Notes: generated by a model from the sequence alone, not told the origin. A DNA stretch of 64,000 nucleotides from Vicinamibacteria bacterium (GCA_031371345.1 JANMJM010000127.1:133-64132); one strand, 5' to 3'; positions 8,253-57,327 are shown, counted from the first letter of the stretch. Translations and numbers: made by a program.

Positions 8253-8327
8253 TGGCTGGGGCGGGTGGATTCGAACCACCGAATACGGGATCCAAAGTCC
8301 CGCGCCTTACCGCTTGGCCACGCCCCA
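8253..8327 (-). tRNA. tRNA-Gln (anticodon UUG), CCA encoded
   Basis: The reverse complement reads TGGGGCGTGGCCAAGCGGTAAGGCGCGGGACTTTGGATCCCGTATTCGGTGGTTCGAATCCACCCGCCCCAGCCA. Features are a 7-bp acceptor stem (TGGGGCG/CGCCCCA), anticodon loop CTTTGGA, T-arm GGTGG-TTCGAAT-CCACC and a 3' CCA. Confidence 0.93.
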
Positions 8328-8351: not shown

Positions 8352-8424
8352 CGAGCGTCGAGCTCCCAGTTTCCAGTTGCCTGACGCTCGAACTCGGAGC
8401 TGAAAGCTGAAGCTGAAAGCTGGG
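8352..8424 (-). repeat. Repeat-word structured element between ispE and tRNA-Gln
   Basis: CGAGCGTC (8352-8359) is complementary to GACGCTCG (8383-8390). CCCAGTTTCCAG (8365-8376) is nearly complementary to CTGAAAGCTGGG (8413-8424). The two helices are interleaved. The right side is a tandem (AGCTGAA/AGCTGA)x4. Confidence 0.55.
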
Positions 8425-15407: not shown

Positions 15408-15436
15408 TAGGGGCGAAGGGAAAGGGGCAAAGGGCA

Positions 15437-17070
15437 ATGACCCCTCACCCCTCACCACTTACCCCTTTTTATTTGCACTCCTGACCATCGCCGCGCGCCT
15501 GCCGTTTCTCGTCTCCGGAAAAATTGCGTTTGATTCCGACGAAGCAATCGAAGGGTTGATGGCGCGTCACGTGCTGCACGGCGAGCTGCCTGCGTTTTTC
15601 TGGGGGCAGGCGTTCAAGGGCGTGCCGGAAGTGTATGCGGCGGCTGGGGCGTTTGCGCTGTTCGGTTCCAGCGTCACCGTGCTGAAAAGCGTGACGCTCG
15701 CGTTCTTCGCGGCGTTCGTAGCGCTGAACTTCGTGCTCCTCGACAAACTGGCGGGCCGCTGGATGGCGGTGTCCACATCGCTCCTTCTTATTGGCGGGCC
15801 GCCGGCACTGGTGTTCTGGAGCCTCGACGCGAGCGCGGAGTATGTGCTCATCATGCTTGTCGGGACGGGGTTTCTTCTTCTGTGCCTGCGCCTGGAAGAA
15901 GCACGTAGGGAAGAGGGAAGAGCGGAAAGGGAAGAAAGACTGCTCGTCGCGATTGGCGTCGTGGTGGGACTGGGATTCTGGGTGCACCAGATTTTCGCGT
16001 TCTATCTGCTGCCGGCCATCGTGATCTTCACGTTTCAGAGCGAATGGTGGAAACGGCGGGCGTTCGGGACTGTCCGCTTTCCTGCCATCGCACTTGGAAC
16101 GGTCGCGACCATCTATCTGACGCTCGCGGTCTTCGCGTTCTTCACCGGCGGTTTTTCCGTTCAGCTTGGATCGATGACTGTTGGCGCACGAGCGCCACAG
16201 AAGCTTCTTCGCATCGCGGTGGCGATCGCGGCGCTCGCGCTGTTCTTTCATCTGATCGCCAATGTGTCGCGCGACGTCTTCACGGAACGCGCGCGGCGCT
16301 ACCGTGGGCTTGCGGCGGGCTTCTTCGCCGGCTATCTGCCCGTGATTCTCTACTCGATGCTCGTCGAGCCCGCGCGAACGCCGTCGCGCGTCGGCGATAT
16401 CAGGCATCTCATGAAGGCCGCTCCGGATATCTACGGCAACGTCATTCCGATTCTCTCCGGCTTCAAACTCGCCACGACGGAGCCGCTCGACATTCCGCTC
16501 GCGGCCGCCGCCATCATCGTCGCCGCGCTGATCACGTATGTGGAAACCATTCGTCATCGCCTCGCCGGTTTCCTCCGGCTGCGGCCGATGCCCCCCACGC
16601 TTGCCGAGGATTTCTTTCCGTTATTCCTGATTGTCGTACCCTCGTTGTTCATCGTGAGTGGCGCGTATATCGACACCCAGTCGTACCGGTATCTCGTCCC
16701 GTATTACACGGGGCTTGCCGTCGCGCTGGCCGCCGGAAGCGTCGCATTGGCGAAAGGCGACCGCAACATCGCGGCGATCTTCGTCGGCATGCTCTTAATC
16801 GTCTTCGGACTGCAGCAATTTGTCTGGTATCAGAAGTTGACCCCTGACGCCGAGTCGAGCCGAATGCTCGATTGTCTGGCCCGCGACGGCATCCGGGGAG
16901 GCTATGCGGACTACTGGACGAGCTACAAGTTGACGTTCCTGTCGAAGGAAGCGATCATCCTCGCTCCATCCAATGGCGTCGATCGGTACCCCTCGTACAC
17001 AGAGTTCGTCCGGGCACTCCCCGAAGATCAGCGCGTCACGACATTACCGGACTGCGTCGTATCACCATAA
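15437..17070 (+). CDS. GT-C fold (ArnT/PMT_2-like) membrane glycosyltransferase; the N-terminus needs a frame change at 15463..15469
   Basis: Polytopic 504-aa ORF from TTG 15556. The same frame is open from 15376 and encodes ..PFLFALLTIAARLPFLVSGKIAFDSDEAIEG. ATG 15437 is in the neighbouring frame, and the two frames join at C CCT TTT. Confidence 0.65.
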
Positions 17071-17082
17071 AGAGGAGAGCAA

Positions 17083-18339
17083 ATGCGAAACACAGTGCTG
17101 ACATTCGCGGCGGTGGCTTGTCTCTGCTCCATCGCGATCGCCGGACAGGATGCGCCCGCGCCCGCCGGCCGGGGAGGGCGCGGCGGCGCGACGGTCACGC
17201 TGCCAGAAGGCAGCGGCCGTGAGCTGGTGCAGACGACGTGCACCAAATGCCATGGCCTGAATTTGATTACCGGCTCCTGGGGCTATACGCACCAAGGCTG
17301 GGAAGCGGTGTTCACCTCGATGGTCGCCGTCCCCGCCGACCAGCGCGCGGTCCTGGCGGACTACCTCGCGAAAAACTTTCCGGAGAAACCGCGGCCGACC
17401 GCCGTCGTCATTCCGGGAACGACCACAGTCCGAATCCAAGAATGGGCGGTGCCTTCACTCGGCTCGAGACCGCACGATCCGCTCGCCATGCCCGACGGAA
17501 CGCTGTGGTGGACGGGACAATGGGCCAATGTGATCGGGCGACTCGATCCAAAGACCGGGGCGATGAAGGAGTTTCCGTTGAAAACGCCCGGGTCCCTGCC
17601 TCACGGCCTGACAGCCGACCGCGCCGGGAATATCTGGTACACCGGCAATGGCAACGGGCACGTCGGCAAGCTGGATCCGAAGACCGGCGAAGTGACTGAA
17701 TACAAGATGCCCGATCCGGCAGCGCGCGATCCTCATACGCCGATCTTCGATCAGAAAGGGACGCTGTGGTTCACGCTGCAGCAATCCAACATGGTCGGGC
17801 GGCTGAATCCGCAGACAGGCGACATCAAACTCGTCACCATGCCGACCGCCCGCTCGCTGCCGTACGGCATGGTCGTGAACTCGAAAGGCGTGCCGTTCAT
17901 CGTCCTCTTCGGCACAAATAAAGTGGCGAGCGTCGATCCGGACACGATGGCGGTTCACGAGTACGTCCTGCCGAACGCCGCCTCACGCCCGCGACGCATT
18001 GCGATTACGCCCGACGACATCATCTGGTATGCCGACTACTCGCGCGGCTACCTGGGACGTCTCGATCCGGCGACCGGCGCGGTGAAGGAATGGGCGTCGC
18101 CGAGCGGTCCGCAGTCGCAGCCGTACGGCATCACGACGGTGAAGGACATCATCTGGTACAGCGAGTCGGCGGTGAGCCCGAATACCCTTGTGCGGTTCGA
18201 TCCGAAAACGGAGAAATTCCAAACGTGGACGATTCCCTCCGGAGGCGGCGTCGTGCGAAACATGATGGCGACCAGGACCGGCAACCTGGTGCTCGCCTGC
18301 AGCGGCATGAATAAGGTTGCGCTCGTCACGGTCGACTAG
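17083..18339 (+). CDS. Secreted c-type heme domain fused to a Vgb (streptogramin-lyase)-like beta-propeller
   Basis: Signal peptide and CTKCH heme motif. These are followed by repeated blades: PHDPLAMPDGTLWWTGQWANVIGRLDPKTGAMKEF, PHGLTADRAGNIWYTGNGNGHVGKLDPKTGEVTEY, PHTPIFDQKGTLWFTLQQSNMVGRLNPQTGDIK. Confidence 0.75.
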   Translation: MRNTVLTFAAVACLCSIAIAGQDAPAPAGRGGRGGATVTLPEGSGRELVQTTCTKCHGLNLITGSWGYTHQGWEAVFTSMVAVPADQRAVLADYLAKNFPEKPRPTAVVIPGTTTVRIQEWAVPSLGSRPHDPLAMPDGTLWWTGQWANVIGRLDPKTGAMKEFPLKTPGSLPHGLTADRAGNIWYTGNGNGHVGKLDPKTGEVTEYKMPDPAARDPHTPIFDQKGTLWFTLQQSNMVGRLNPQTGDIKLVTMPTARSLPYGMVVNSKGVPFIVLFGTNKVASVDPDTMAVHEYVLPNAASRPRRIAITPDDIIWYADYSRGYLGRLDPATGAVKEWASPSGPQSQPYGITTVKDIIWYSESAVSPNTLVRFDPKTEKFQTWTIPSGGGVVRNMMATRTGNLVLACSGMNKVALVTVD

Positions 18340-18342
18340 GTT

Positions 18343-18425
18343 CAACTGGTGAACTCTTGAACTCGTGAACTGGTGAACTGAATTTTTCAGTTCACCAGCT
18401 CACCAGTTCACCAGTTCACCAGTTG
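18343..18425. repeat. Long hairpin of tandem GGTGAACT words between convergent genes (probable bidirectional terminator)
   Basis: caactggtgaactcttgaactcgtgaactggtgaactg aattttt cagttcaccagctcaccagttcaccagttcaccagttg. The arms are about 38 nt with 4 mismatches. The same 8-mer word occurs at 30887..30975. Confidence 0.8.
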
Positions 18426-18431
18426 CCGGCG

Positions 18432-20042
18432 TCAGTGCCTAAAGTGCCTTTTCCCCGTCAGCACCATCGCGATGCCGTGCTCGTCGGCGGCCGCAATCAC
18501 CTCTGAATCGCGAACCGATCCACCTGGCTGCACCACAGCTGTCGCGCCGGCGGCCGCGAGCGCGTCGAGGCCGTCGCGGAACGGAAAAAACGCATCCGAC
18601 GCAGCGACCGATCCGGCAAGGGGTGTTGCGCCATCTGTCTTTCCAGCCTTCAACACCGCCACCTGCACGGCGTCGACGCGGCTCATCTGCCCTGCGCCGA
18701 TGGCGAGCGTGCGCGACGCATCGGTAAAAATGACGGCGTTCGACTTCACGTGCGCGCAGATGCGCCACGCAAAGCGCAATGCGCTCCACTCTGCGTCGGT
18801 CGGCGGCCGTTTCGTCACGACTTTCAAGCCCGCGGCGTCGGCCGTCTTCGCGCTCCACGGCTCGCGCGCCTCGATCACCTCATCGCGCTGCTGCACGAGC
18901 ACGGCGCCGAGGATCGAGCGCAGCTCGCGACGGCTCGTCGGATCCGATCCTGGATGAAGGTCGGCGACGACAACCCGCATGTTGGCTTTGGCGGCGAGAA
19001 TCGGTCGCGCGTCCTCATGAACCGCGGGGGCAATCACGGCTTCGATAAACGTCGCGACGAGCACTCGCGCGGTCGCCGCATCGATCGGACGGTTCAGACC
19101 GATGATGCCGCCGAAGGCAGCGAGACTGTCGGCATCGCGCGCGCGGACGTACGCCTCATCGATGGTGGTGCCGATGGCCGCACCGCACGGATTGGTGTGC
19201 TTGATCACCGCTGCGGCCGGCTCGGTGAACTCGAGCGCGATGCGGGCCGCCGAGTCGAGGTCGAGCAGGTTGGTGAACGACAGTTCTTTCCCCTGAAGCA
19301 CGAGCGCCGCGCCGAGTCCGGACGGCGGGTCGTTTGAATACCAGCCCGCCTGCTGGTGCGGATTTTCGCCGTACCGCAACTCTTTGATCTTGTGCAGATT
19401 GATCGACAGCCGCGACGGCGTGACCGAGAGCCCCTTCGCTCTCGAGTAGCCGCTCGCCGAGGTCGAGAATTCCATGAGCGTGCCGGCGATCGCTGCATCG
19501 TAGGCCGCGGTATGCGCGAAGGCTTTGCGCGCCAGGTCGAAGCGGAACTCGCGCGAAGGCCCATCCGCGCGCTCGAGCTCGGCGAGGACGTGCGCATAGT
19601 CGCCCGGATCGACGACGACGAGCACATCCTGGAAATTCTTCGCGGCCGAGCGCACCATGCTGGGTCCGCCGATGTCGATTTCCTCGACAAGCGCGTCAAA
19701 CGCGATGTCGGGTCGCGCGGCGGCCTTCACGAACGGGTACAGATTGACGATCACGATGTCGATCGGCGTCATCCGGTGCTGCGCGAGAGTAGCGATGTCG
19801 TCCGGCCGGCCGCGCCGCGCCAGAATGCCGCCGTGCACCGCCGGATGCAACGTCTTCACTCGTCCGTCCATGATTTCGGGAAATCCGGTCACGTCGGCGA
19901 TCGAGGTCACCGTGACGCCGCCGGCGCCGAGGGCCTTGGCGGTCCCGCCGGTGGACACGAGCTCGTAGCCCCGAGCGGCCAGCGCCAGGGCGAAGGGCAC
20001 GAGGCCCGTTTTATCCGAAACGCTGATTAATGCTCTAGCCAT
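18432..20042 (-). CDS. purH: Bifunctional AICAR transformylase / IMP cyclohydrolase
   Basis: The ORF runs 18432..20081. The conserved start MARALISVSDKTG is at ATG 20042, and similarity is full-length (HFRH C-terminus). Confidence 0.95.
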   Translation of the reverse strand: MARALISVSDKTGLVPFALALAARGYELVSTGGTAKALGAGGVTVTSIADVTGFPEIMDGRVKTLHPAVHGGILARRGRPDDIATLAQHRMTPIDIVIVNLYPFVKAAARPDIAFDALVEEIDIGGPSMVRSAAKNFQDVLVVVDPGDYAHVLAELERADGPSREFRFDLARKAFAHTAAYDAAIAGTLMEFSTSASGYSRAKGLSVTPSRLSINLHKIKELRYGENPHQQAGWYSNDPPSGLGAALVLQGKELSFTNLLDLDSAARIALEFTEPAAAVIKHTNPCGAAIGTTIDEAYVRARDADSLAAFGGIIGLNRPIDAATARVLVATFIEAVIAPAVHEDARPILAAKANMRVVVADLHPGSDPTSRRELRSILGAVLVQQRDEVIEAREPWSAKTADAAGLKVVTKRPPTDAEWSALRFAWRICAHVKSNAVIFTDASRTLAIGAGQMSRVDAVQVAVLKAGKTDGATPLAGSVAASDAFFPFRDGLDALAAAGATAVVQPGGSVRDSEVIAAADEHGIAMVLTGKRHFRH

Positions 20043-20063
20043 AAAGCTTGGAGGCCCACGGAG

Positions 20064-20092
20064 TTGACGCGCCGGTAACAAGTCACTATTAT
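20064..20092 (+). promoter_or_regulatory. Sigma70-type promoter candidate for the csp leader
   Basis: TTGACG (20064-20069), a 17-nt spacer, then TATTAT (20087-20092). It lies in the purH/csp divergent region. Confidence 0.55.
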
Positions 20093-20417: not shown

Positions 20418-20454
20418 CGCCTCGTCTTCCTGCCCTTGGCGGGGAGACGAGGCG
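20418..20454. terminator. GC-rich hairpin between convergent csp and the 194-aa gene
   Basis: CGCCTCGTCT (20418-27) is perfectly complementary to AGACGAGGCG (20445-54). The flank is T-rich. Confidence 0.6.
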
Positions 20455-21663: not shown

Positions 21664-22041
21664 ATGCGCTATTTAGTGACAGCCAAAGTGAAGCCGGGTC
21701 GCGAGAAGGCGCTCGCGCAAGCGATCGAAGACGGCACGCTGGGTGCAGGGTCGATCGCCGGCGGGGAGTATCGCCGCAACATGGAATGCGCACGCCTGGT
21801 GCGCGACGGGGCCGTTCAGTGGGTTGAAGTCTGCTACTGTTCGACGCCGCTCGCAGAAGAACGTCCGTACTGGGAGGCGTATTTCGATGTGGTGAAGGTG
21901 CAGGACGCGCACGCGCGCGATCGCTGTAAGGATTTGAACGGCACCGATCCCTGGGCCTGTTCCGATTGTGACTGCACGGAAAAACTCGAAGCCCGCCTCA
22001 CGACCTGGGGGCCGCTCTTCCTCGACACGTTGGTTGGTTAG
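21664..22041 (+). CDS. Hypothetical Cys-rich protein
   Basis: The ORF runs 21586..22041, and the likely start is MRYLVTAKVKPGREKAL at 21664. It contains CYC and CSDCDC clusters. Confidence 0.55.
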   Translation: MRYLVTAKVKPGREKALAQAIEDGTLGAGSIAGGEYRRNMECARLVRDGAVQWVEVCYCSTPLAEERPYWEAYFDVVKVQDAHARDRCKDLNGTDPWACSDCDCTEKLEARLTTWGPLFLDTLVG

Positions 22042-22100
22042 TTGTTGGTTGGTTAGTTGTTAGTCGCTCGTTGAGCTCACGAACAGCCAACAACTAACAA
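22031..22100. repeat. Hairpin of TTAGTTGTTGG words between convergent genes
   Basis: ggttagttgttggttggttagttgttag ... ccaacaactaacaa. 22035-22048 pairs with 22087-22100 (1 mismatch). The 13-mer ttagttgttggtt recurs at 39706-39718. Confidence 0.7.
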
Positions 22101-22112
22101 ATGCGTTGAACG

Positions 22113-30262: not shown

Positions 30263-30868
30263 CTAAGCCCTGTCGGGGATCTGATGGTGGCAGCCGGTCA
30301 GTGCGCCCTCGCCGCGAGCGCGGAGATCGTCGGCGAGCTTCCTGGCGTCTTCTGGTTGCAGGCACTCGTGCCAACTGTCGTTCACCATCACCAAGGGCGC
30401 GCGATCGCAGGCGCCCAGACATTCGACTTCCATCAATGTGAAGGTTCCGGTTGAATCCGTTTCGTTGGGCTCGATGCCCAGAACCGACATCAATTCTTCC
30501 GTCACGCGCTCGGCGCCGCGCAGCGCGCACGGAAGCGTTCGGCACACCTGCACCACATATTTTCCGACCGGCCGCGTGTAAAACATGGTGTAGAACGACA
30601 CGACGTCTTCGACGTCCGCCGCGGTGCAGCCAATGACGGTCGCCACATGCTGCACGGAGCTCAGCGAGATGTAGCCGATCTGCCGCTGCACCAGGAACAG
30701 CGCGGGCAGAATCGCCGACTTCCGGCCTTCGAGCGGATAGCGTGTCGCGATCTGCTCGAGACGCGCGCGATTCTCCGGCTCGTAGGCAAACACCTTCCCA
30801 TCATCGAACGGCATTTTGCGCGTCGAGCGATGGAACTCGCGGTAGTCGATCTTTGGGTGAAAGGTCAT
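30263..30868 (-). CDS. nuoE: NADH-quinone oxidoreductase subunit E
   Basis: 201 aa. It has the 2Fe-2S cysteines (VCRTLPCALRG ... VECLGACDRAP). Confidence 0.92.
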   Translation of the reverse strand: MTFHPKIDYREFHRSTRKMPFDDGKVFAYEPENRARLEQIATRYPLEGRKSAILPALFLVQRQIGYISLSSVQHVATVIGCTAADVEDVVSFYTMFYTRPVGKYVVQVCRTLPCALRGAERVTEELMSVLGIEPNETDSTGTFTLMEVECLGACDRAPLVMVNDSWHECLQPEDARKLADDLRARGEGALTGCHHQIPDRA

Positions 30869-30886
30869 ATCAACTTTTGAAGTTTT

Positions 30887-30975
30887 GAACTGGTGAACTG
30901 GTGAACTGGTGAACTGGTGAACTGGTGAACTGGAAACTCCAGATCACCAGTTCACCAGATCGCCAGTTCACCAGA
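30887..30975 (-). repeat. Tandem (GAACTGGT)x5 microsatellite forming a long hairpin between nuoD and nuoE
   Basis: Five perfect 8-mers lie at 30887-30926, with one variant copy. The complementary arm is agatcaccagttcaccagatcgccagttcaccagat. It uses the same word family as 18343..18425. Confidence 0.85.
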
Positions 30976-30980
30976 TTTCC

Positions 30981-32162
30981 TCATCTGTCCACATCCCCCA
31001 TCACCACGTCGATGGATCCGATGACGGCAATCACGTCGGCGATCAACCCGCCGACGATCATCCGCGGCAACGCCTGACACGCGAGCAACGAGGGCGACCG
31101 CGCTTTCAGGCGCCAGGGACGATTCGTGCCGTCGGCCACGACATAGAACCCGTGCTCGCCGCGCGCGCCTTCGACCGGCACGTAGGCTTCGCCGACAGGA
31201 ACCGTGAACCCCTGCGAGTAAATCAAGAAATGCTGAATCAGCGCTTCCATCTCCGTGTAGACGCGATCCTTCGGCGGCGGTACCACCGTCGGCGCGTCGG
31301 CGGCAAAGACGCCGGCCGGGGTGATGCGCGACAGGGCCTGGCGGCAGATCGTGACGCTCTGCCGCATTTCCTCGATGCGCACGAGATAGCGGTCGTACAC
31401 GTCGCCGTCGGTCCCGACCGGCACATCGAAGTCGAACGTATCGTAGCCGCTGTACGGGAAGATCTTGCGGACGTCGTAGTTCCAGCCGGAGGCGCGTCCA
31501 ATCGGCCCCGCCAGGCTGAGCCCGATGCACTCGTCCTTCGACAGCTTGCCCACGCCGCGCGTGCGCTTCACGTAAATTTCGTTCCTGGTCAGCAGACCTT
31601 CGTACTCGTTCAGCTTTGTGGGAAACGTGTCGAGAAACTGCGTGACGGCTTCGTGGAATCCGCGCGGCAGATCGTCGCGAAGGCCGCCCACGCGAATGTA
31701 GCTCGGGAACATGCGGAAGCCGGCGATGCGCTCGTTGATGTCGAGCAGCAGCTCGCGCTCGCGGAAGCAGTACAGCATCACCGAAATCGCGCCCACTTCC
31801 ATGGCGTGCGTGCCCAGCCACACCAAGTGACTGTTGATGCGTTGCAGCTCCGCGAGAAGCACGCGAATCCACTTCACACGATCCGGCATCTCGAGGCCGA
31901 GGAGCCTCTCCACCGACAGCGAGTACGCGAAGGAATTCGACTGAGCGCTCAGGTAATCCATGCGCTCGACGAGGGGAATCACCTGTTGGAATTTTTTTTG
32001 CTCGGCGGTCTTTTCGATGCCGGTGTGCAGATAGCCAATGGTCGGCGACGCCGAGACGACGGTCTCGCCATCGAGCTCGAGCACCAGACGCAGCACGCCG
32101 TGCGTGCTGGGGTGCTGCGGCCCCATGTTAATCGTCATCGTCTCGGTGCGGATTTCCGGCAT
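30981..32162 (-). CDS. nuoD: NADH-quinone oxidoreductase subunit D
   Basis: 393 aa: MTINMGPQHPSTHGVLRLVLELDGE, with a C-terminal ...DVVMGDVDR. Confidence 0.95.
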   Translation of the reverse strand: MPEIRTETMTINMGPQHPSTHGVLRLVLELDGETVVSASPTIGYLHTGIEKTAEQKKFQQVIPLVERMDYLSAQSNSFAYSLSVERLLGLEMPDRVKWIRVLLAELQRINSHLVWLGTHAMEVGAISVMLYCFRERELLLDINERIAGFRMFPSYIRVGGLRDDLPRGFHEAVTQFLDTFPTKLNEYEGLLTRNEIYVKRTRGVGKLSKDECIGLSLAGPIGRASGWNYDVRKIFPYSGYDTFDFDVPVGTDGDVYDRYLVRIEEMRQSVTICRQALSRITPAGVFAADAPTVVPPPKDRVYTEMEALIQHFLIYSQGFTVPVGEAYVPVEGARGEHGFYVVADGTNRPWRLKARSPSLLACQALPRMIVGGLIADVIAVIGSIDVVMGDVDR

Positions 32163-38171: not shown

Positions 38172-39710
38172 GTGGCATCGCTCGTCGCCCTCGGCATTCT
38201 GTTCAGCCGCCTGACCGGCCTCATCCGACAACGCGTCTTCGCCCACTATTTCGGCCTGCAGTCGGATGCGGCCGACGCGTTCATGGCGGCGTTTCGCATC
38301 CCCAATTTTCTGCAGAACCTGTTCGGCGAGGGGGCGCTCTCGGCGTCGTTCATTCCGGTCTATGCCTCGCTGATCGCACGAGGCGATCGCCGCGAGGCAA
38401 CGCGCGTCGCCGGCGCGGTCGGCGCGCTGCTCGCCCTGGTCACATCGGTCCTCGTCCTGCTAGGCGTGCTGTCGACGCCGGTGCTGATCGCAGTGATCGC
38501 GCCTGGATTCCGCGGCGCGAAGCGCGATCTCACGATTGCCATCGTTCGCGTACTGTTTCCTGGGGCGGGCTTCCTGGTGTTGTCGGCATGGTGCCTCGGC
38601 GTACTCAACAGTCACCGGAAATTTCTGCTGTCGTACACGGCTCCGGTTATCTGGAACGTCTCGATGATTGCCACGCTCGTTATCTGGGGTGCACGCATCC
38701 CGTTGCCCGAGCTCGCACTGCAGCTGGCGTGGGGATCTGTCATTGGCAGCGCGCTTCAGTTCCTGATACAGCTGCCGGCCATCCGGCAGCTGGTCCCGGA
38801 ACTGCGATTGCGGCTCGACTTTTCCGAACACGTCCGCACGACGGTTCGCAATTTTGTTCCTGTGTTCATCAGCCGCGGTGTCGTGCAAATCAGCGCGTAT
38901 ATCGACGCGCTCCTGGCGAGCCTCCTGCCGACAGGCGCGGTCACCGGCCTTGCCAATGCGCAGCTCCTCTACACGCTGCCGGTCAGCCTCTTCGGCATGT
39001 CCGTGTCGGCTGCCGAGCTGCCGGCGATGTCCGGAGCCGCAGGGCTCGACGCAACAGACGAGCTTCGTGCACGGCTGAACAACGGCCTCCGACAAATTGC
39101 CTACTTCGTGATTCCCTCTTCGGTTGCGTTCCTCGCACTCGGCGACATTATTGCCGCGGCGCTTTTTCAGACGGGCCGTTTCACACACGAGGATGCGATG
39201 TACGTGTGGGCGATTCTCGCGGGATCCGCTGTAGGGTTGGTGGCCTCGACCCTCGGGCGGCTGTACTCATCCACCTACTATGCCCTTCGCGATACGCGGA
39301 CGCCGCTGCGCTATGCATTGATTCGCGTCGTGCTCACGACAGTGCTCGGATATGTGTGCGCGATTCTCCTGCCGCAGCGCCTGGGCATCGATCAACTGTG
39401 GGGCACCGCCGGCCTGACAGCCTCGGCCGGCGTCTCGGGATGGATTGAATTCCTGCTGCTGCAGCGCACGCTCAATCACCGCATCGGACAAACGGGTCTG
39501 CCGCTGGGATTCTCCACGCGGTTATGGATCGCGGCACTCGTCAGTGCCGGCATTGCCTGGTCGCTGAAAATCGCGTTGACCGTGTCACAGCCAATCGTGC
39601 TGGCCGCCGTGACGCTCATTCCCTACGGTCTGTGCTATTTCGCCGTCACGTTCTGGTCGGGGATTCCGGAAGCGCGGACGATGCTGGCGAGAGCGAAGGT
39701 AGTTAATTAG
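38172..39710 (+). CDS. murJ: Lipid II flippase MurJ (MviN)
   Basis: 512 aa: LFSRLTGLIRQRVFAHYFGLQSDAADAFMAAFRIPNFLQNLFGEGALSASFIPVY. Confidence 0.92.
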   Translation: MASLVALGILFSRLTGLIRQRVFAHYFGLQSDAADAFMAAFRIPNFLQNLFGEGALSASFIPVYASLIARGDRREATRVAGAVGALLALVTSVLVLLGVLSTPVLIAVIAPGFRGAKRDLTIAIVRVLFPGAGFLVLSAWCLGVLNSHRKFLLSYTAPVIWNVSMIATLVIWGARIPLPELALQLAWGSVIGSALQFLIQLPAIRQLVPELRLRLDFSEHVRTTVRNFVPVFISRGVVQISAYIDALLASLLPTGAVTGLANAQLLYTLPVSLFGMSVSAAELPAMSGAAGLDATDELRARLNNGLRQIAYFVIPSSVAFLALGDIIAAALFQTGRFTHEDAMYVWAILAGSAVGLVASTLGRLYSSTYYALRDTRTPLRYALIRVVLTTVLGYVCAILLPQRLGIDQLWGTAGLTASAGVSGWIEFLLLQRTLNHRIGQTGLPLGFSTRLWIAALVSAGIAWSLKIALTVSQPIVLAAVTLIPYGLCYFAVTFWSGIPEARTMLARAKVVN

Positions 39711-39769
39711 TTGTTGGTTATTAGTGGTTAGGTGTTGACCAACAACCAACACCTAACAACCAACCACTA
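39710..39769. repeat. Hairpin of GTTGTTGGTTA / GGTTAGGTGTTG words between convergent genes
   Basis: TTAGGTGTTG (39728-37) pairs with CAACACCTAA (39747-56), TAGTGG (39722-27) with CCACTA (39764-69), and alternatively GTTGTTGGT (39710-18) with ACCAACAAC (39738-46). Confidence 0.75.
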
Positions 39770-41496: not shown

Positions 41497-41576
41497 GTAG
41501 AAACTGGAAACTAGGAACTGGAAGGTAAGTGTTGAACTTACTTTCTAGTTTCTAGATTCTAGTTTCAAGTTTCAAG
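41497..41576 (+). repeat. 34-bp-arm hairpin of GAAACT/CTAG words; contains a 20-mer repeated at 49192..49213
   Basis: gtagaaactggaaactaggaactggaaggtaagt gttga acttactttctagtttctagattctagtttcaag. Four arm differences are G-U pairs on the + transcript only. TTCTAGTTTCAAGTTTCAAG (41557-76) overlaps the phoD stop. Confidence 0.8.
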
Positions 41577-43110
41577 TTAACTGAGCTCCCGCCCTCCCAT
41601 CTTCGACAATAAAGGACGAGCGCGTCTGAATCGGCGAACCTTGGCGTGTGACATATTCCAGCACCTTGAAGTCGGTGCGCATCTGCGCCGGTTTGATGTC
41701 GCACATCACGTATCCCCGCTGATCATTGTAAAACCGCACCCACGGGTTTTCCGACGCCGCCTCCTGATATCCCGGCTTCTGGTCTGCTCCGTCGCCCGTC
41801 GACGTGACCGATGTCCCGACGAATTCGGTCGCCACAATCGGTGACTTCGGATTGTCGAAATCGAGGTGAAGGTCGTTTACCCAGTTGCAGTGGATGTCTC
41901 CGGCGAGCGTCACCGGATTCCTCGGCTTCCGCGTGCCCAGGAAATCGAGCAGTCGCTGACGCGCGACTTCATACCCGTCCCACTTATCCATGGAGTACTG
42001 TTTCGCTGGTCCCGCGACGCGGTCGAGCCGCGAAATCATCACCTGCTGCCCGAGGAGATTCCACGCCGTTGGCGAGCGGTCGAGGCCCCTCATCAACCAT
42101 TTCTCCTGGTCACGTCCCAGCATCGTCGCTTTCGGATCCAGCATGCCGGGACAGGGCGATTGCACGTTGTCGCCGCAGGGCTGATCGGTGCGGAACTGCC
42201 GCGTGTCGAGCATGAAGATGTTGGCGAGCGTGCCGTACTGAAAAGGTCGATAGAGCTGCAGCGACGTGCCGCGCGGCACCGACGAGCGGCGGAGCGGCAT
42301 GTGTTCGTAGTACGCCTTGTAGCCGTTGGCGCGCCGGATGGCGAAGGCCTCGAGCGGCGCGTTGTTTTCCTGGAAAAACCCCGCGTAGTTGTTGTCGACT
42401 TCGTGATCGTCCCACACGACGATCCACGGATACTGCGCATGCGCGGTCTGAAGCGACGGATCGGTCCGGTATTGCGCGTACCGATTCCTGTAGTCGTCGA
42501 CCGTCATCAATTCCGGCCCGACGTGTTTGCGCACGCGCAGGTTGACGCCTGGCGCTTCGTAGATGTAGTCGCCGAGGTGCATGACAAAGTCGAGATCTTC
42601 CTTCGCCATGTGATCGTAGGCCGTGAAGTAGCCCTGCTCGTAGTGTTGACACGACGCGAACGCAAAGCGCAGGCGATCCACCGCCGACTGCGCGGCGGGA
42701 AACGTCCGCGTGCGCCCAATCCGACTCAGCTCGTTGCCGGCGCGAAACCGATACCAGTACCACCGGTGTGGTTGCAGCCCCGTCACTTCCACGTGAACCG
42801 CGTGCGCCCATTGCGGCGAGGCGACGCCCATCCCTGTTTTCACCACGTCCGACATCTTCTCGTCGGTCGCCACCTGCCATTCGACCTGCACCGATTCGCG
42901 CCCCATGCCGCCGCCATTCAGCGGATCGACAGCCAGCCTCGTCCAGAGAACGACGCCGTCAGACGTCGGATCGCCCGAGGCCACGCCGAGCGTGAACGGA
43001 GACGTGGAGAATTTCGGATTTTGCAGTGGAGCGCCGCCAGCAAACAGCTCGCGCGCGGACGCACCATACAGCGCCAGCCCGCTCAGGAGAAACGCACGTC
43101 GATGCACCAT
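41572..43110 (-). CDS. phoD: Alkaline phosphatase D family (PhoD), Tat-exported
   Basis: 512 aa. It has the twin-arginine signal MVHRRAFLLSGLALYGASA and the metallophosphatase motifs MHLGDYIYE and VVWDDHEVDNNY. Confidence 0.9.
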   Translation of the reverse strand: MVHRRAFLLSGLALYGASARELFAGGAPLQNPKFSTSPFTLGVASGDPTSDGVVLWTRLAVDPLNGGGMGRESVQVEWQVATDEKMSDVVKTGMGVASPQWAHAVHVEVTGLQPHRWYWYRFRAGNELSRIGRTRTFPAAQSAVDRLRFAFASCQHYEQGYFTAYDHMAKEDLDFVMHLGDYIYEAPGVNLRVRKHVGPELMTVDDYRNRYAQYRTDPSLQTAHAQYPWIVVWDDHEVDNNYAGFFQENNAPLEAFAIRRANGYKAYYEHMPLRRSSVPRGTSLQLYRPFQYGTLANIFMLDTRQFRTDQPCGDNVQSPCPGMLDPKATMLGRDQEKWLMRGLDRSPTAWNLLGQQVMISRLDRVAGPAKQYSMDKWDGYEVARQRLLDFLGTRKPRNPVTLAGDIHCNWVNDLHLDFDNPKSPIVATEFVGTSVTSTGDGADQKPGYQEAASENPWVRFYNDQRGYVMCDIKPAQMRTDFKVLEYVTRQGSPIQTRSSFIVEDGRAGAQLT

Positions 43111-44999: not shown

Positions 45000-45006
45000 G
45001 GTGAAC

Positions 45007-45072
45007 CTGAAATCTAGAATTTGAAATCTATAATCTAAAATTTTAGATTTCAAATTCTAGATTTTAGATTCA
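45007..45072. repeat. AT-rich hairpin of AGATTT/CTAGA words between convergent genes
   Basis: ctgaaatctagaatttgaaatctataatctaaaa | ttttagatttcaaattctagattttagattca. It has about 27 paired positions with a 7-nt bulge and runs into the stop of the minus-strand gene. Confidence 0.75.
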
Positions 45073-51959: not shown

Positions 51960-52556
51960 TCAAACAGAAATGCCTGCCCGGATTCGCTCGTTGGCGAACC
52001 GGACGAACGCCTCGACATCGGTCTGCTGCCGTTCGAGCAGCCCGTCGATAGCGAGCATCGCAATCCCGTGAACCGTCGCCCAGACGAACTGCGCCAGTCG
52101 TAACGGGTTTTCGGCCCGCACTGATCCTTGTGTCTGTTGCGCGAGCAGCGCGTCGACGAGCGCCTGGAACGCGCCCGCGCCCTCCCGAGCGCGCTCGGAA
52201 TCGATGTTCGCTTCCACGTGGCCGCCGAACATGACGCGATAGTGCGACGGGTTGGCGACGGCGAACCGCACGTATGCCATCCCCATCTCCTCGAACGCTG
52301 AACCGCTCTGGCCGTGTCTGTGCCACGCCTCGATCAGCTCCACCCGCAACATACGAAAACCTTCAGTTGCCACGGCCGCGAGCAGCGCCGATTTGTCGGT
52401 GAAGTGCCGATAGAGCGCGGTTCGCGACACTCCGAGCCGCGCCCCGACGACCCGCAGGGTTAGCCCGTCGACGCCCTTTTTCTGGATAATGCGGACCGCC
52501 TCCTGGAGGAGGGCCCGGCGGAGGTCGCCGTGGTGGTACGCGTGTTTTCTGGCCAT
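51960..52556 (-). CDS. TetR/AcrR-family transcriptional regulator
   Basis: 198 aa. The HTH is GVDGLTLRVVGARLGVSRTALYRHFTDK. Confidence 0.9.
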   Translation of the reverse strand: MARKHAYHHGDLRRALLQEAVRIIQKKGVDGLTLRVVGARLGVSRTALYRHFTDKSALLAAVATEGFRMLRVELIEAWHRHGQSGSAFEEMGMAYVRFAVANPSHYRVMFGGHVEANIDSERAREGAGAFQALVDALLAQQTQGSVRAENPLRLAQFVWATVHGIAMLAIDGLLERQQTDVEAFVRFANERIRAGISV

Positions 52557-52576
52557 AAACAGATGGTAACCGGTCT

Positions 52577-52608
52577 ATGTTGACAATGTCAACATAAGGG
52601 ATTATCAT
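52577..52608. promoter_or_regulatory. Perfect 19-bp palindrome (TetR-operator candidate) overlapping a TTGACA-17-TATCAT promoter
   Basis: The palindrome is ATGTTGACA-A-TGTCAACAT (52577-52595). TTGACA (52580-85), a 17-nt spacer and TATCAT (52603-08) face the + gene. Further GTTGAC half-sites lie at 52618-52640. Confidence 0.6.
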
Positions 52609-52659
52609 CGCGCTCGTGATGTTGACGTTGTTGACATTGACTTCAACGAGGAGCGTATC

Positions 52660-53622
52660 ATGCAGACGATGATGAACAGGACACGGGATCAGATGAGACG
52701 GTTGTGGAACGCCGACGCGCCTCTCACGGGCGCCAGTATGCTGATGCTGGCCGCTTTGGCGCTTGCCGTTTTTGGCCTGGCAGTCGATCCGCGGACGATC
52801 ACGGGCATGCCGGCATGGATGAAGCCGGCGAAGTTCGCGGTGTCGACCGCGATCTTCATGACGACCCTGGCATGGATCTTCGGCTACCTGCCGTCCTGGG
52901 TGAGGATGCGACGAATCGTCGGCCGGGCGGTCGCCTTCATCTTATTACTCGAGGTCGCCATCGTTTACCTCCAGGCGTGGCGCGGCACAACCAGCCACTT
53001 CAACGCGGGAACGCCGCTGGACACCACGCTCTTCGCCGTGATGGGCATTGCCATCGGGATACAGACCGCTCTCAGTGCGGTTGTCGCGATCGCGTTGTGG
53101 CGCCAGCCGTTCACAGACCGCGCGCTCGGATGGGCGCTGCGCCTCGGTCTCGCCATTTCGATCATCGGCGCGTCAACTGGTGGGCTCATGGTGTCGCCAA
53201 CCGCGGCCCAGATTGCCGAGGCGCGTATCACGCATCGGCTGCCGGTTTCCGGCGGGCATACGGTCGGCGCGCCAGACGGTGAGCCTGGCATCACCGGGCT
53301 TGGATGGAGTCGCGAGCACGGTGACATTCGTGTGCCCCATTTTCTCGGGCTTCACGCACTGCAATTTCTCCCACTCGTCGTCCTCGCAGCGGCGCGCAGA
53401 GGGCTGGCCGACGCTCAACGCGTCCGGTTGGCGTTCGTTGCGGCCGCGAGCTATTTCTCGCTGTTTGCGATCCTTCTGTGGCAGGCGCTGCGAGCTCAGT
53501 CGGTTCTCGGGCCCGACGCGACGACGCTGATCGCGCTGTCGATCTGGGCGGTGGTGACGATCATCATGTCGTGGACCATCGTCTCGCGGCACCCGGTCCG
53601 CTTGCATGTCATGGTGTATTGA
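52660..53622 (+). CDS. Hypothetical polytopic membrane protein
   Basis: 320 aa with about 8 hydrophobic segments and a strong SD (GAGGAG) 6 nt upstream. No family recognised. Confidence 0.65.
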   Translation: MQTMMNRTRDQMRRLWNADAPLTGASMLMLAALALAVFGLAVDPRTITGMPAWMKPAKFAVSTAIFMTTLAWIFGYLPSWVRMRRIVGRAVAFILLLEVAIVYLQAWRGTTSHFNAGTPLDTTLFAVMGIAIGIQTALSAVVAIALWRQPFTDRALGWALRLGLAISIIGASTGGLMVSPTAAQIAEARITHRLPVSGGHTVGAPDGEPGITGLGWSREHGDIRVPHFLGLHALQFLPLVVLAAARRGLADAQRVRLAFVAAASYFSLFAILLWQALRAQSVLGPDATTLIALSIWAVVTIIMSWTIVSRHPVRLHVMVY

Positions 53623-54459: not shown

Positions 54460-57327
54460 TTAGAACGGCAGTTTCGCTTCAGTGGTTTGCTCGAACTTCA
54501 CGTCGACGGCGGTCCGCCGCTCGCCGCGGTCGGGATGCGACGCCGTGATTTCGTGAGTGCCGACAACGAGTGGAAGGAGCTCAGCGAACGGCGCCTTGCC
54601 TATCGGCTGTCCGTCGACGCTCACGTCGGTGCCGTCCGGAACGGAAATCTTCAGCGTGCCGGTCGGCAGCGACACTGTGTACGCCGTCACTTCTCCGGGC
54701 TTCACGATCAATGTCTCGTGCTGACGGAAATTGTACCGAGCGTTCACCATCTCGACTTGGTATGTGCCCGGAGCAATCATGAAGCGGCCATCTTCCGCCG
54801 GCGCCACCGTTGCGCCATTCAACTTGATGTCGAGCTTGATCGGCGCGAAGAGCGCCAGCCATCCTGAGAAAATCGCCTCAGATGCGAGCGTCGTCTGTCC
54901 GAGGCGCACCGTCACGCGCCTGATAATGGTGCCTGACCCACTATGCAGCACCAGGTTGTGCGAGCCAGGCTTCAGATTTGGGATCGTCTGAGGTGATTCC
55001 CCGCGGCTCTCGCCATCGAGCGTGATCTGGGCGCCGGCCGGTGTTGTTTCCACCCTCAACGTGCCGCCTTTCACTGGGGGCGCGACGACTTCACGCCGCC
55101 GAACCTCGGTGACGGTGCGTTGGGGAGCGGGCTGGGCGGTCGCCGGTGCTCGCCGCGCACCCGTGTCCATCCCGTTCATCACGACGACCACCAAGGCTGC
55201 GGCCACCGGAAGGCCCCACTTGATCCAACGGACGTAGTTGAACGGCGCCGCTTCCTCGTCTGCTCCCTGCGGACCTTCTGGTTCCGTCGCGTCGCCGCGA
55301 TGGGTGATTTTCTGCCAGAGGCTGTAGTAGTCGCGTCGCTCGCCGGAGAATTGCGCGGCGGCCACCTCGACTTCCGCGACTTCCGCGGGTTGTTCGAGGC
55401 GTAGGGCCGCTTGTTGTTGGAGGCGTAGCGGCGAATCTGCCTGGAGGCGTAGCGGTTGCTGTGGTCGCGCGATGAGCATCGGTGGCGGTGCTTCTGCCAC
55501 GGGAAATGAAATGACCTCGGCCGGCCGACGCGCCGATGCGGCGCGCGCCTGCTCTGCTACGGCGCGGGCTTCTTCCGCGGCTTGGCGTGCCTGCTCGGTT
55601 GCCGCCTGGCGCGCAGATGCGGCTCGCGCCTGCTCTGCGGCAGCACGGGCTTCTTCCGCGGCCTCCCGCGCCTGCTCGGTCGCCGCCTGGCGCATCTCGG
55701 CCATCTGCGTCCGTAGCTCGAGCAGCTGGACCGCTTGACGCTCCTGCGCCTCGGCGCGCACGCGGGCGATTTCAGTTTCGAGAATGGTGTCGGCTTGAGA
55801 GCGCACGCGGGCGATCTCGGCGGCGAGCGTCTGCCGGGCAGCGTCTTCAGCAATCGCCCGCGCCTCTCGCGCGGCGTGCTCACGAATCTGTTCCGCGGTT
55901 TCTTTCGCGTGCGATTGATCGGCGGCGCGCGCGCGCTCGGCGTCCTTGCTGATGCGCTCGAGCTCGGACTTGAGATGCGCGTCGGCTTGCGCGCGAACCT
56001 GGGCCACTTCGGCTTCGAGGGTGCGCGCGGTTTCCGTCGCCTCGTCCTGCACTCGCGTCAAGTCGGCGCGCAGCGCCTCGGCGTCCTGCCGTGCGCGGCC
56101 AATTTCCTGGCTGAGCGTGCGCTCGGCTTCGATCTTCACTCTGTTCACCGCTTCGGCGACTGTGCCTTCCGCCTCCGACCGTACGCGCGCGACTTCCGAC
56201 GCAAGAGCACGCCGTGTCTCCTCCTCCGCTGCCGCTCGCGCATCGGCGATCGCGGCTTCGCGCATTGCATCCGAGTCGGCTTGGAGCCGCGCGAGCTCGG
56301 CGAGGCGACGCTCTTCGGCCTCGGCACGAACACGTTCAAGTTCCCTCGCCAGGTTGGCTTCGGTCTCGGCCTGGACGAGCGCCACTTCAGCGGCCATCCG
56401 TTCGGCCGATTCCTCGTTCTGCACGTCGACCAGCCCCGCCTCGAGACTCAGGCCCAAATCGCGCGCGAGCTGATCGAGATCGCTTTTGCCGGGTTCGGCA
56501 TTCACAGGCGCGGCGGTGAATCGTTCCGACGCCCATGGATCGGCGAACGCTACCGGCTCGATGTTGGTGTTCGGAACGGGCGCGTTGAACACAGATGAGG
56601 TATCAGGAGATTCATTGTGCGAGACCTGGTTCACAGGCGCTGCGGTGAACCGTTCTGTCGACCAAGGATCGGCGGCGCGCGGTTGGTCGAGGACACTCGA
56701 TGGTTCAGCCACGGGTTCGCCGGGCTCTGGCGTCCATGCCGCCGGCTCGGGCGTCCAGGTCGCCGGCTCCGGTGCCCAAGCTGCCGGCTCGGGTGCCGAC
56801 GCGACGGGCTCGGGTGTCCAAGGTTCAGGTTCGGCCGTCCAAGGCTCGGGCTCCGGATTCACCTCCGCTGTTGGCGCATTAATAAGGGTGGGGTACTCGC
56901 GGGTTCGCACTGGCCGGTTTCGTAATTCGGCTGCGCGCTCCAAGTGGGTCGCGACCTCTTCGGCGAAGACCGCCGGGTCGCAACCCGTGGGCGCCGCGGT
57001 CTCTTTTTTTTTCTTCCGGAAGCTGAAGCCCCCGGTCTTCCCCCCCGACGAAGACGACTTGCCCGACGATTTTCGCAATTGCGGAATCGTCAGCGTCTGA
57101 AGATGTGAGGCGCCGTCGAGCGATCGCAGATACGTCATCAACCGGTCTTCATCGCGGGGCGACAGCAAGGCCGTCACAAGGATAACGTCCGGCACCTGTC
57201 GGTCGATGGTCTCGATAGCGGCGTCGATGGACGGCACCAGAACGAGCTCCGCTCCAAGGCGCTTCTGCATCGTCCGCAGAAGATTTGCCTGGTTTGTATC
57301 TGGCTCGACCAGCAACACGACGCTCAT
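54460..57327 (-). CDS. 955-aa receiver-like / acidic-repeat / coiled-coil / single-TM / PEGA-domain protein
   Basis: The N-terminal CheY-like fold is MSVVLLVEPD...PDVILVTALLSP. It is followed by (PEPxxW)n, a long A/E/R/Q coiled coil, a TM segment WIKWGLPVAAALVVVVMNG, and C-terminal PEGA units (LRVETTPAGAQITLDGESRG; LKISVPDGTDVSVDGQPIG). Confidence 0.85.
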   Translation of the reverse strand: MSVVLLVEPDTNQANLLRTMQKRLGAELVLVPSIDAAIETIDRQVPDVILVTALLSPRDEDRLMTYLRSLDGASHLQTLTIPQLRKSSGKSSSSGGKTGGFSFRKKKKETAAPTGCDPAVFAEEVATHLERAAELRNRPVRTREYPTLINAPTAEVNPEPEPWTAEPEPWTPEPVASAPEPAAWAPEPATWTPEPAAWTPEPGEPVAEPSSVLDQPRAADPWSTERFTAAPVNQVSHNESPDTSSVFNAPVPNTNIEPVAFADPWASERFTAAPVNAEPGKSDLDQLARDLGLSLEAGLVDVQNEESAERMAAEVALVQAETEANLARELERVRAEAEERRLAELARLQADSDAMREAAIADARAAAEEETRRALASEVARVRSEAEGTVAEAVNRVKIEAERTLSQEIGRARQDAEALRADLTRVQDEATETARTLEAEVAQVRAQADAHLKSELERISKDAERARAADQSHAKETAEQIREHAAREARAIAEDAARQTLAAEIARVRSQADTILETEIARVRAEAQERQAVQLLELRTQMAEMRQAATEQAREAAEEARAAAEQARAASARQAATEQARQAAEEARAVAEQARAASARRPAEVISFPVAEAPPPMLIARPQQPLRLQADSPLRLQQQAALRLEQPAEVAEVEVAAAQFSGERRDYYSLWQKITHRGDATEPEGPQGADEEAAPFNYVRWIKWGLPVAAALVVVVMNGMDTGARRAPATAQPAPQRTVTEVRRREVVAPPVKGGTLRVETTPAGAQITLDGESRGESPQTIPNLKPGSHNLVLHSGSGTIIRRVTVRLGQTTLASEAIFSGWLALFAPIKLDIKLNGATVAPAEDGRFMIAPGTYQVEMVNARYNFRQHETLIVKPGEVTAYTVSLPTGTLKISVPDGTDVSVDGQPIGKAPFAELLPLVVGTHEITASHPDRGERRTAVDVKFEQTTEAKLPF
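55528..55689 (-). repeat. 2 x 81-bp in-frame tandem repeat inside the 955-aa gene
   Basis: aa 547-573 QAATEQAREAAEEARAAAEQARAASAR is followed directly by aa 574-600 QAATEQARQAAEEARAVAEQARAASAR. Confidence 0.85.

Follow-up and report, generated by a model that had tools for sequence, protein, structure and literature searches.

Tandem arrays of 7-9-nt words have been noted in bacterial spacers since 1990, and their origin and function have remained without explanation. In Xanthomonas, each genome carries about 185 arrays of the heptamer GGGAATC, including 70-75 convergent inverted pairs able to form stem-loops (Rehm et al., 2015, PMC4692102), and in Xcc 70 of 186 arrays stand in such convergent pairs (PMC4692102). 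These arrays show a strong bias towards positions next to the upstream gene's stop, differ in length from species to species and are transcribed, with no known function (PMC4692102). For the long simple-sequence repeats (LSSR) of prokaryotes, an excess of heptamers and a slippage hypothesis are attributed to Mrazek et al. (2007) where that work is cited (PMC4679880, PMC4692102). Here we describe a hairpin built of tandem 8-nt words at positions 18343-18425 of a 64,000-nt stretch of DNA from a Vicinamibacteria bacterium (GCA_031371345.1, JANMJM010000127.1:133-64132; hereafter the window), which lies between a Vgb-like gene and purH. This hairpin is an LSSR in inverted-pair arrangement, all listed features of which were found: a unit of 5-11 nt in at least about three copies, a complementary array close by, a stop-proximal spacer, and variation between relatives. 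The preliminary description of the locus had recognised no named repeat family in it; the phenomenon as such is nevertheless not unrecognised, since arrays of 7-9-nt units fall under LSSR and inverted pairs near stops have been described in Xanthomonas (PMC4692102).

We read the element as a quasi-palindrome of two inverted 8-nt simple-sequence arrays, and as one of a genome-specific set of word hairpins that occupy stop-proximal spacers. This reading is tentative, and we give it a rough probability of 0.45. The locus is composed as follows.

17083..18339, + strand: Vgb_lyase-family beta-propeller gene (E 6e-47) with CXXCH seen in its translation; the TAG stop ends 3 nt before the hairpin
18343..18382, no strand: left arm, about 4.6 tandem copies of GGTGAACT in the units CAACTGGT GAACTCTT GAACTCGT GAACTGGT GAACTGAA
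18383..18385, no strand: loop TTT, 3 nt; the palindrome reaches almost to the centre
18386..18425, no strand: right arm, about 4.6 copies of AGTTCACC; its mismatches to the left arm are uncompensated
18432..20081, - strand: purH (AICARFT/IMPCHase), with the stop codon 6 nt past the hairpin and the true start likely near 20042

The two 40-nt arms are 90% complementary, and Tandem Repeats Finder (TRF) assigned a period of 8 and 4.6 copies to each of them, with matches of 86% and 93%. The stop-to-stop spacer of 92 nt is thus filled by the hairpin. Its predicted RNA fold has -56.8 kcal/mol on the + strand and -64.3 kcal/mol on the - strand, while shuffles of the same sequence average about -23 to -26 kcal/mol (z about -11) and none of 200 shuffles matched the real fold; as single-stranded DNA the element folds with -35.1 kcal/mol (z -10). 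The hairpin has a GC content of 46% compared to 65% in its flanks, and no T-tract follows the stem on either strand, where CCGGCGTCAG (+) and AACCTAGTCG (-) are found instead. An assembly artefact was ruled out as the source of the hairpins, as they are internal to the window with intact flanking genes and as equivalent hairpins occur in many independent assemblies.

The same word builds a second hairpin at 30886-30976, inside the complex I (nuo) operon, where it occupies the spacer between nuoD and nuoE.

30263..30868, - strand: nuoE, with the start codon 17 nt from the hairpin
30886..30933, no strand: arm 1, 6.0 perfect copies of TGAACTGG, with decayed units toward the nuoE start codon
30939..30976, no strand: arm 2, 4.8 copies at 80%, or a 16-nt super-period AGATCACC AGTTCACC at 95%
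30981..32162, - strand: nuoD, with the stop 4 nt from the hairpin

Per nucleotide, the purH/Vgb and nuoD/nuoE spacers are the two most structured spacers of the window. Allowing up to two mismatches, the 16-mer GGTGAACTGGTGAACT has 14 matches in the window, all of them at these two loci (0.02 expected), and the longest exact string common to both is 16 nt. The two 14-mers earlier said to be common to the loci were present at both and nowhere else in the window. In its main lines, the preliminary description of the locus was therefore confirmed, i.e., a hairpin between the convergent Vgb-like gene and purH, arms made of tandem copies of the same 8-mer as at the second locus, and an element poorer in GC than its flanks and lacking a U-tract. 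Its claim of a dispersed family also holds, in that the hairpin is one of several word-repeat hairpins in the window and its word recurs non-randomly. Between the second hairpin and the nuoE start codon (30869-30885), the final units are decayed from AGTTCACC to AGTTCAAA and ACTTCAAA, and this leader is unpaired, A-rich and without an obvious Shine-Dalgarno sequence.

Compared to Xanthomonas GGGAATC, the window arrays show the same tandem 7-8-nt units, typically about four, in stop-proximal spacers, with pairs on opposite strands, variability among close relatives and, by analogy, probable transcription. In Xanthomonas, by contrast, a single G-rich word dominates, which forms G-quadruplexes, and 83% of its sites are common to two species, whereas here several unrelated words are used per genome, GGTGAACT has no G-tract, the AT content of the element exceeds that of the genome, orthologous sites have another word or none, and the host belongs to the Acidobacteriota. 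With LSSR as they are summarised in the citing papers, the arrays share the unit of 5-11 nt, at least three head-to-tail copies, a predominance in spacers of non-pathogens and polymerase slippage as the suggested origin; as summarised there, the LSSR concept is one of direct arrays, and neither systematic pairing in inverted orientation nor the reuse of a word at several loci, both seen here, is part of it.

The evidence that such hairpins come and go was obtained from the orthologous junctions of relatives. The best NuoD and PurH matches to the window are 92-93% identical and belong to uncultured soil Acidobacteria, and the closest relative DNA compared has about 83% nucleotide identity to the window. 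At the purH/Vgb-lyase junction seven relatives with conserved gene order were compared (L numbers are our labels for relatives' DNA; PurH identity in brackets).

L198 (93%): 68-nt hairpin (AAGGGGY)n/(RCCCCTT)n
L199 (86%): 7-nt spacer
L200 (85%): (GACGCAGR)n hairpin
L204 (85%): (GACGCAGR)n hairpin
L205 (82%): 32-nt remnant of the GACGCAGR word
L201 (84%): overlapping genes
L206 (82%): overlapping genes

At nuoD/nuoE, stop and start overlap as ATGA in most of about 35 relatives, including the closest one (L118, 93%), while a few have short non-repetitive spacers and others carry unrelated arrays, namely GGTGCGAY (L126/L127), (ATTGCAG)3(AGCTGAA)3 (L129) and TGGCGAYC (L138). The GGTGAACT element was absent at both orthologous junctions in all relatives examined. 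Since these junctions carry other words or no spacer at all, the comparison indicates that the GGTGAACT hairpins are recent, dispensable and lineage-specific gains, and that both junctions work without any hairpin. Individual hairpins can nevertheless persist for some time, as hairpins of one word class (heptamers containing GGGG) stand at the PfkB junction in the window, L199 and L201, and a CACGAAG-word hairpin at nuoE/nuoF in about 10 relatives; at the latter junction a long word hairpin (-38 to -65 kcal/mol) was found in about 20 of 50 relatives. The purH/Vgb and nuoD/nuoE junctions thus provide a natural experiment, in which the same two sites are empty, hold one word or hold an unrelated word across lineages with 82-93% protein identity, a pattern of elements that are gained or replaced on short time scales and are dispensable. 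Such arrays can even split the translationally coupled genes of complex I without destroying the operon. Literature searches with the exact repeat string and for hairpin-forming 7-8-nt arrays returned no paper on this element or mechanism, and as far as these searches show, it is new that such hairpins occur in Acidobacteria, that one word replaces another at a fixed junction, and that overlapping nuo genes are split by them.

Word arrays are not restricted to these junctions. In 0.5 Mb of relatives' DNA, TRF identified 127 arrays with periods of 5-11 and very diverse words, their density being about 1.3 per kb in spacers and 0.2 in called genes. An inverted partner within 90 nt was found for 43 of the 96 arrays in co-directional or convergent spacers, partners being searched for from the tandem-repeat arrays because an ungapped hairpin finder misses most bulged hairpins. 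Such arrays are thus strongly enriched in spacers, about half of them occur as inverted pairs, and the two arms of a pair vary in sequence and number of units without following one another. A very long inverted pair, GTCGTTC x14.6 against CGAACGA x12.9 with arms of about 100 nt, was seen at 2043-2254 of L194.

In the window itself, word hairpins fill five of about ten convergent junctions, three lie in co-directional spacers and none in divergent ones, as counted on a crude gene map based on GC at third codon positions (GC3) that was supplemented. Three words, GGTGAACT, GTTGGTTA and GAAACTG, are used at two loci each, and GGTGAACT accounts for 4 of the 16 arrays listed for the window. Besides the two GGTGAACT hairpins, the following were recorded, none of them with a strand.

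8366..8422: degenerate pair of CCAGTTTCCAGTT (the reverse complement of the GAAACTG word) and (AGCTGAA)x3.7, in a co-directional spacer beside a tRNA gene
15409..15466: weaker hairpin of the heptamers GGGGCAA / ACCCCTC, just past the stop of the PfkB-kinase gene
22029..22101: hairpin of the GTTGGTTA word, in the convergent spacer downstream of nuoN
39708..39768: hairpin of the words GTTGGTTA / ACCAACA, in the convergent spacer after murJ; same word as at 22029
41500..41578: hairpin of the heptamers GAAACTG / TTTCTAG, in the convergent spacer of a BON-domain and a PhoD gene
45002..45072: hairpin of the heptamers AAATCTA / TAGATTT with 21% GC, filling a 70-nt convergent stop-to-stop spacer

How the hairpins arise and spread may be envisaged as follows. 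New loci would come about mainly when a hairpin already present is copied into a further spacer of the same genome that tolerates it, leaving no recognisable transposase footprint; once settled, the arrays would expand, contract and homogenise through replication slippage, and the inverted layout could stem from strand-switch (snap-back) synthesis. The latter would explain why the palindromes reach to within 0-3 nt of the centre, a geometry that such an origin fits. The hairpin would then persist because it is harmless in its place, and not because it is needed. A trace of slippage may be seen at the second locus, where the arm at 30886-30933 consists of six identical units and its partner has diverged with a 16-nt super-period. 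Slippage alone, on the other hand, does not account for a hairpin of 70-110 nt where an ATGA overlap or only 7 nt of spacer stood before, and the flanks of the hairpin arrays yielded no local seed. Arrays share an excess of 6-8-mers with their own flanks within 40 nt, owing to decayed units at the array edges, and none beyond that distance. We therefore rejected the idea that words are seeded by the flanking coding DNA, and for the same reason take the likeness of the nuoD 3' end to the variant units TGGTGAT and GGCGATC as chance. Words do recur across junctions of one genome, in the window as well as in L175 and L117. In a sister family, the outer ends GCAACCACGAAG...CTTCGTGGTTGC, which are unlike the inner units, are common to copies at different junctions, and in L204 the same holds for the ends CTCGACGCAG...CGCGTCGAATG at both the purH and the nuoN junctions. 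Ends common across junctions in two sister families favour the copying of whole hairpins within a genome, and the comparison thus suggests such copying followed by replication slippage.

Several observations weigh against this reading. Only the word is common to the two GGTGAACT loci, which differ in loops, ends, flanks and length, so that for this family copying is deduced from its sisters and not demonstrated. Words were shared more often within than between loci with an odds ratio of 2.3 in a crude test (p = 0.08), which is suggestive only. The statistics of array location rest on crude GC3-based gene calls. Finally, the occupancy of half of the convergent junctions in the window could reflect selection for a 3' hairpin, and the same may be true of the word hairpin or remnant seen at the purH junction in five of eight sampled lineages. 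The preliminary description had offered self-propagation or convergent generation as the origin of the repeat; this choice is not settled for GGTGAACT, while the common ends of the sister families favour copying. A broader version of our reading would see the word hairpins as self-propagating spacer elements of the Acidobacteriota and perhaps of other high-GC soil phyla, in which entire hairpins would be duplicated into spacers between two stop codons, and in essential operons even into junctions where stop and start overlap (ATGA), with structure or context being recognised rather than sequence, without terminal repeats or target duplication, and with each genome holding its own small word families that diversify by slippage. 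We regard this generalisation as decidedly speculative and rather improbable as a whole.

A selected role at the 3' end is the main rival to the copying of harmless hairpins. The hairpin would then be an RNA structure under selection, which, for the convergent transcripts of purH and the Vgb-like gene, would either terminate transcription in both directions without a U-tract or stabilise the 3' ends, and in nuo would serve as an intercistronic processing or stability element; as selection would act on the hairpin rather than on its sequence, words would be free to turn over. The occupancy of convergent spacers and the recurrence at the purH junction despite unrelated words keep this rival alive, and it gains from the position of the hairpin 3 nt past one stop and 6 nt short of the other, from the retention of one word class at the PfkB junction, and from Xanthomonas, where transcript starts and ends coincide with such repeats more frequently than with controls (PMC4692102). 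When the two strands of 20 intra-operon hairpins were compared, G.U pairs were in weak excess in the sense strand of nuoE/nuoF hairpins (76 vs 50), but only 11 of the 20 were more stable in sense, a difference that is not significant (Wilcoxon p = 0.14), and for the nuoD/nuoE hairpin the antisense strand is, if anything, the slightly more stable one. Moreover, a 7-nt spacer or gene overlap at both junctions in relatives makes the hairpin dispensable, a terminator between nuoD and nuoE would harm, arm mismatches are uncompensated in both GGTGAACT hairpins, and the lineage also has a conventional terminator-like hairpin, conserved at 20418-20454. On balance we consider selection for RNA structure doubtful. 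It is also possible, though unlikely, that the two GGTGAACT loci are unrelated, each having grown in place by slippage from a chance seed together with local inverted duplication, with the common word reflecting a mutational or compositional preference. Their dissimilar ends, loops and flanks would fit, and common descent is implausible for arrays of the word in more than 10 phyla (at least 115 loci), where an inverted partner was present at 11 of the 115 loci among the matches listed, so that arrays and hairpins are separable. The nuoD/nuoE spacer of L117 contains GTGAAC, and the over-representation of heptamers is ascribed to polymerase slippage by Mrazek (2007) as cited in PMC4692102. Yet the ancestral states, a 7-nt spacer and an ATGA overlap, give almost no seed, flanks at least 40 nt away have no excess of k-mers in common with the arrays, and non-unit ends are common across junctions in the sister families. 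A clade-wide preference is likewise not apparent, as none of the 127 arrays in acidobacterial relatives uses GGTGAACT, whereas a quarter of the arrays listed for the window do and three words each occur twice within its 64 kb.

If a dedicated enzyme from another part of the genome, e.g., a RAYT-like transposase of the HUH class, moved it in trans, the hairpin would be a non-autonomous mobile element akin to repetitive extragenic palindromic (REP) sequences, REPINs or miniature inverted-repeat transposable elements (MITE). Its shape and the preference for spacers after genes recall REPINs, each genome has its own families, those of CACGAAG and GACGCAG keep their end clamps, and ATGA stands on both sides of the nuoD/nuoE insert. 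The latter duplication is however needed anyway for an intact stop and start of the two genes, there is no target duplication at the purH junction, and among about 55 window proteins no match to transposase, RAYT or integrase families (Pfam) was found. The arms are tandem 8-mers and not a conserved REP sequence, the two copies differ in length, loop and ends, and several unrelated words per genome would call for several enzymes or for a structure-specific one, which together make a mobile element of this type improbable. We give even less credence to a function at the level of DNA, either as an array of sites for a word-specific protein or as a cruciform or nucleoid-structuring site. A multimeric protein might attach to short units in tandem, cold-shock proteins have been discussed as single-strand binders of heptamers in the case of TAACTGA repeats (PMC4679880), and the palindromic centre would permit cruciform extrusion, given the DNA fold of -35 kcal/mol. 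Against this stand the many unrelated and rapidly replaced words per genome, the 8-nt period that is out of phase with the DNA helix, the lack of any candidate protein among our results, and the dispensability of the elements in relatives, so that a DNA-level element appears highly improbable.

Copying and slippage of harmless hairpins, as preferred here, leave room for a modest effect on the transcripts. Transcription of the purH/Vgb hairpin would give both convergent mRNAs a 3'-terminal stem of about 40 bp; from the second copy, the stem would separate the nuoD and nuoE cistrons. Its predicted role is probably at most generic, e.g., a barrier to 3' exonucleases, a substrate of RNase III or a weak U-tract-independent pause site or attenuator. 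Intrinsic terminators have GC-rich stems of 5-14 bp followed by a U-tract, and U-tract-poor hairpins have been reported in high-GC bacteria. The element resembles them in following directly on a stop codon and in being symmetric and potentially bidirectional, but differs in its 40-bp stem with 46% GC (loops of terminators being 3-8 nt), in the missing U-tract, in having one copy inside an operon and in not being conserved, and it would not act as a classical intrinsic terminator. In this respect we agree with the preliminary description, which had set the element apart from ordinary intrinsic terminators; its label "terminator-type" is more doubtful, given the copy inside the nuo operon, which makes a strong-terminator role unlikely, and the relatives with a 7-nt spacer or overlapping genes. 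Terminator-like consensus sites were not enriched in the window (20 vs 15.7 expected), and 18343-18425 was not reported by that scan. In annotation, neither the label of an intrinsic terminator nor that of a mobile element should be given to word hairpins by default.

In a REPIN, a conserved REP sequence of 20-40 nt stands twice, in inverted orientation, and genomes hold tens to hundreds of nearly identical REPINs along with a cognate RAYT gene. REPINs share with the window hairpins the form of long spacer hairpins after or between convergent genes and families that are genome-specific and spread within a genome, whereas the window arms are tandem 8-mers, in two copies alike in the word alone with a longest common string of 16 nt. 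A MITE is not indicated either, as no duplication flanks the element at the purH junction and body and ends differ between the copies. That the element had earlier not been recognised as REP, ERIC or MITE is in line with this, since it is not REP, ERIC or a classical MITE, and among Rfam covariance models the sole window match above the gathering score was a tRNA, with the word hairpin unmatched. Mycobacterial interspersed repetitive units (MIRU) are direct repeats of 46-101 bp with small translationally coupled ORFs, situated in overlapping stop/start junctions of operons, and are not hairpins; the nuoD/nuoE element resembles them as a short repeat at an overlapping stop/start junction, but it is inverted, and its GGTGAACT arm has TGA in all three frames. 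The short tandemly repeated repetitive (STRR) heptamers of cyanobacteria were reportedly described by Mazel and colleagues in 1990 as several words per genome in tandem spacer arrays, mainly direct, that served as fingerprinting targets. The window shares the several words per genome and the spacer arrays with STRR, which are cyanobacterial and for which hairpin pairing is not defining. Calothrix heptanucleotides are also mentioned in PMC4692102.

The TAACTGA repeats of Beggiatoaceae, Cyanobacteria and Bacteroidetes (MacGregor, 2015, PMC4679880) are likewise a short word with many spacer arrays in distant phyla and with stops in all frames of one orientation. These sets are nearly all direct and just upstream of start codons, with 1 of 170 inverted (PMC4679880), while the window arrays are inverted and adjacent to stops. 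Outside the window, at least 115 loci with 2.5 GGTGAACT units were found when one genome per species was scanned, most of them, among the matches listed, in metagenome-assembled genomes (MAGs) of Bacteroidota with several per genome; further hosts among these matches were Gemmatimonadaceae, other Acidobacteriota, Burkholderiales, Pseudomonas, Marinomonas, Streptomyces and candidate-phyla bacteria. One Vicinamibacterales MAG has two GGTGAACT array loci among the matches listed. The preliminary description had regarded absence of further copies together with absence at orthologous junctions as a sign of coincidental local duplication, and the outcome is mixed: GGTGAACT is absent from both orthologous junctions, and further (GGTGAACT)n arrays exist elsewhere, including the Vicinamibacterales pair. 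With millions of arrays distributed over about 8,000 word classes, chance could account for this number of loci by a rough estimate. Inverted partners were commoner in high-GC genomes (5/24 vs 6/91, among the matches listed). The Bacteroidota arrays look closer to the TAACTGA situation, being mostly direct and placed amid other arrays, with some ending a few bases before a start codon; in L044 and L113, arrays in AGTTCACC orientation end a few bases before ATG, as TAACTGA repeats do in Beggiatoaceae and some Bacteroidetes. In viral contigs the word had only 2 matches, a number without power for comparison with permuted control words.

The window as a whole is core housekeeping DNA, with radA, alr, dnaB, ribosomal proteins, prs, ispE, purH, nuo, murJ and a tad pilus locus. 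The tRNA gene at 8256-8327 (- strand, 66 bits in Rfam) is the one next to the degenerate pair, and its spacer also contains the AGCTGAA array at 8398-8422. The conventional hairpin at 20418-20454 is GC-rich (CGCCTCGTCTYCCCGCC...GGCRGGAAGACGAGGCG) with a T-rich tail and is nearly base-for-base conserved in relatives, where it was located as follows.

L199, 5583-5619
L201, 4697-4731
L204-L206, spacer between a 194-aa gene and a cold-shock gene

From this conservation it is likely a true terminator or a stem with a regulatory role. In L204-L206, variable heptamer arrays (GGGCAGA, GGAAGCT, GGGAAGA) precede it. Another GC-rich hairpin, with the core GGGGGTGGGGCCCC, recurs in various nuo spacers of relatives (nuoD/nuoE in L122; nuoE/nuoF in L135, L168, L173 and L192; variants in L125 and L127) and looks like a separate REP-like dispersed element of these Acidobacteria. 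Relatives also have a SIS-domain gene between nuoC and nuoD (L116, 9425-10000; L117, 9245-9973) where the window has none, and the database protein P0023 is a 594-aa SIS-NuoD fusion. Elsewhere in the window, inverted TGTTGACA-type repeats at 52573-52641 lie in the divergent spacer between a TetR-family gene (51960-52556, - strand) and a gene at 52660-53622 (+ strand), and are probably the operator of the TetR-family repressor. Finally, the 955-aa PEGA-domain gene (54460-57327, - strand) has internal tandem repeats of 81 nt x2 (55529-55693) and 21 nt x6 (56718-56843), which, lying within the gene, are repeats at the protein level.

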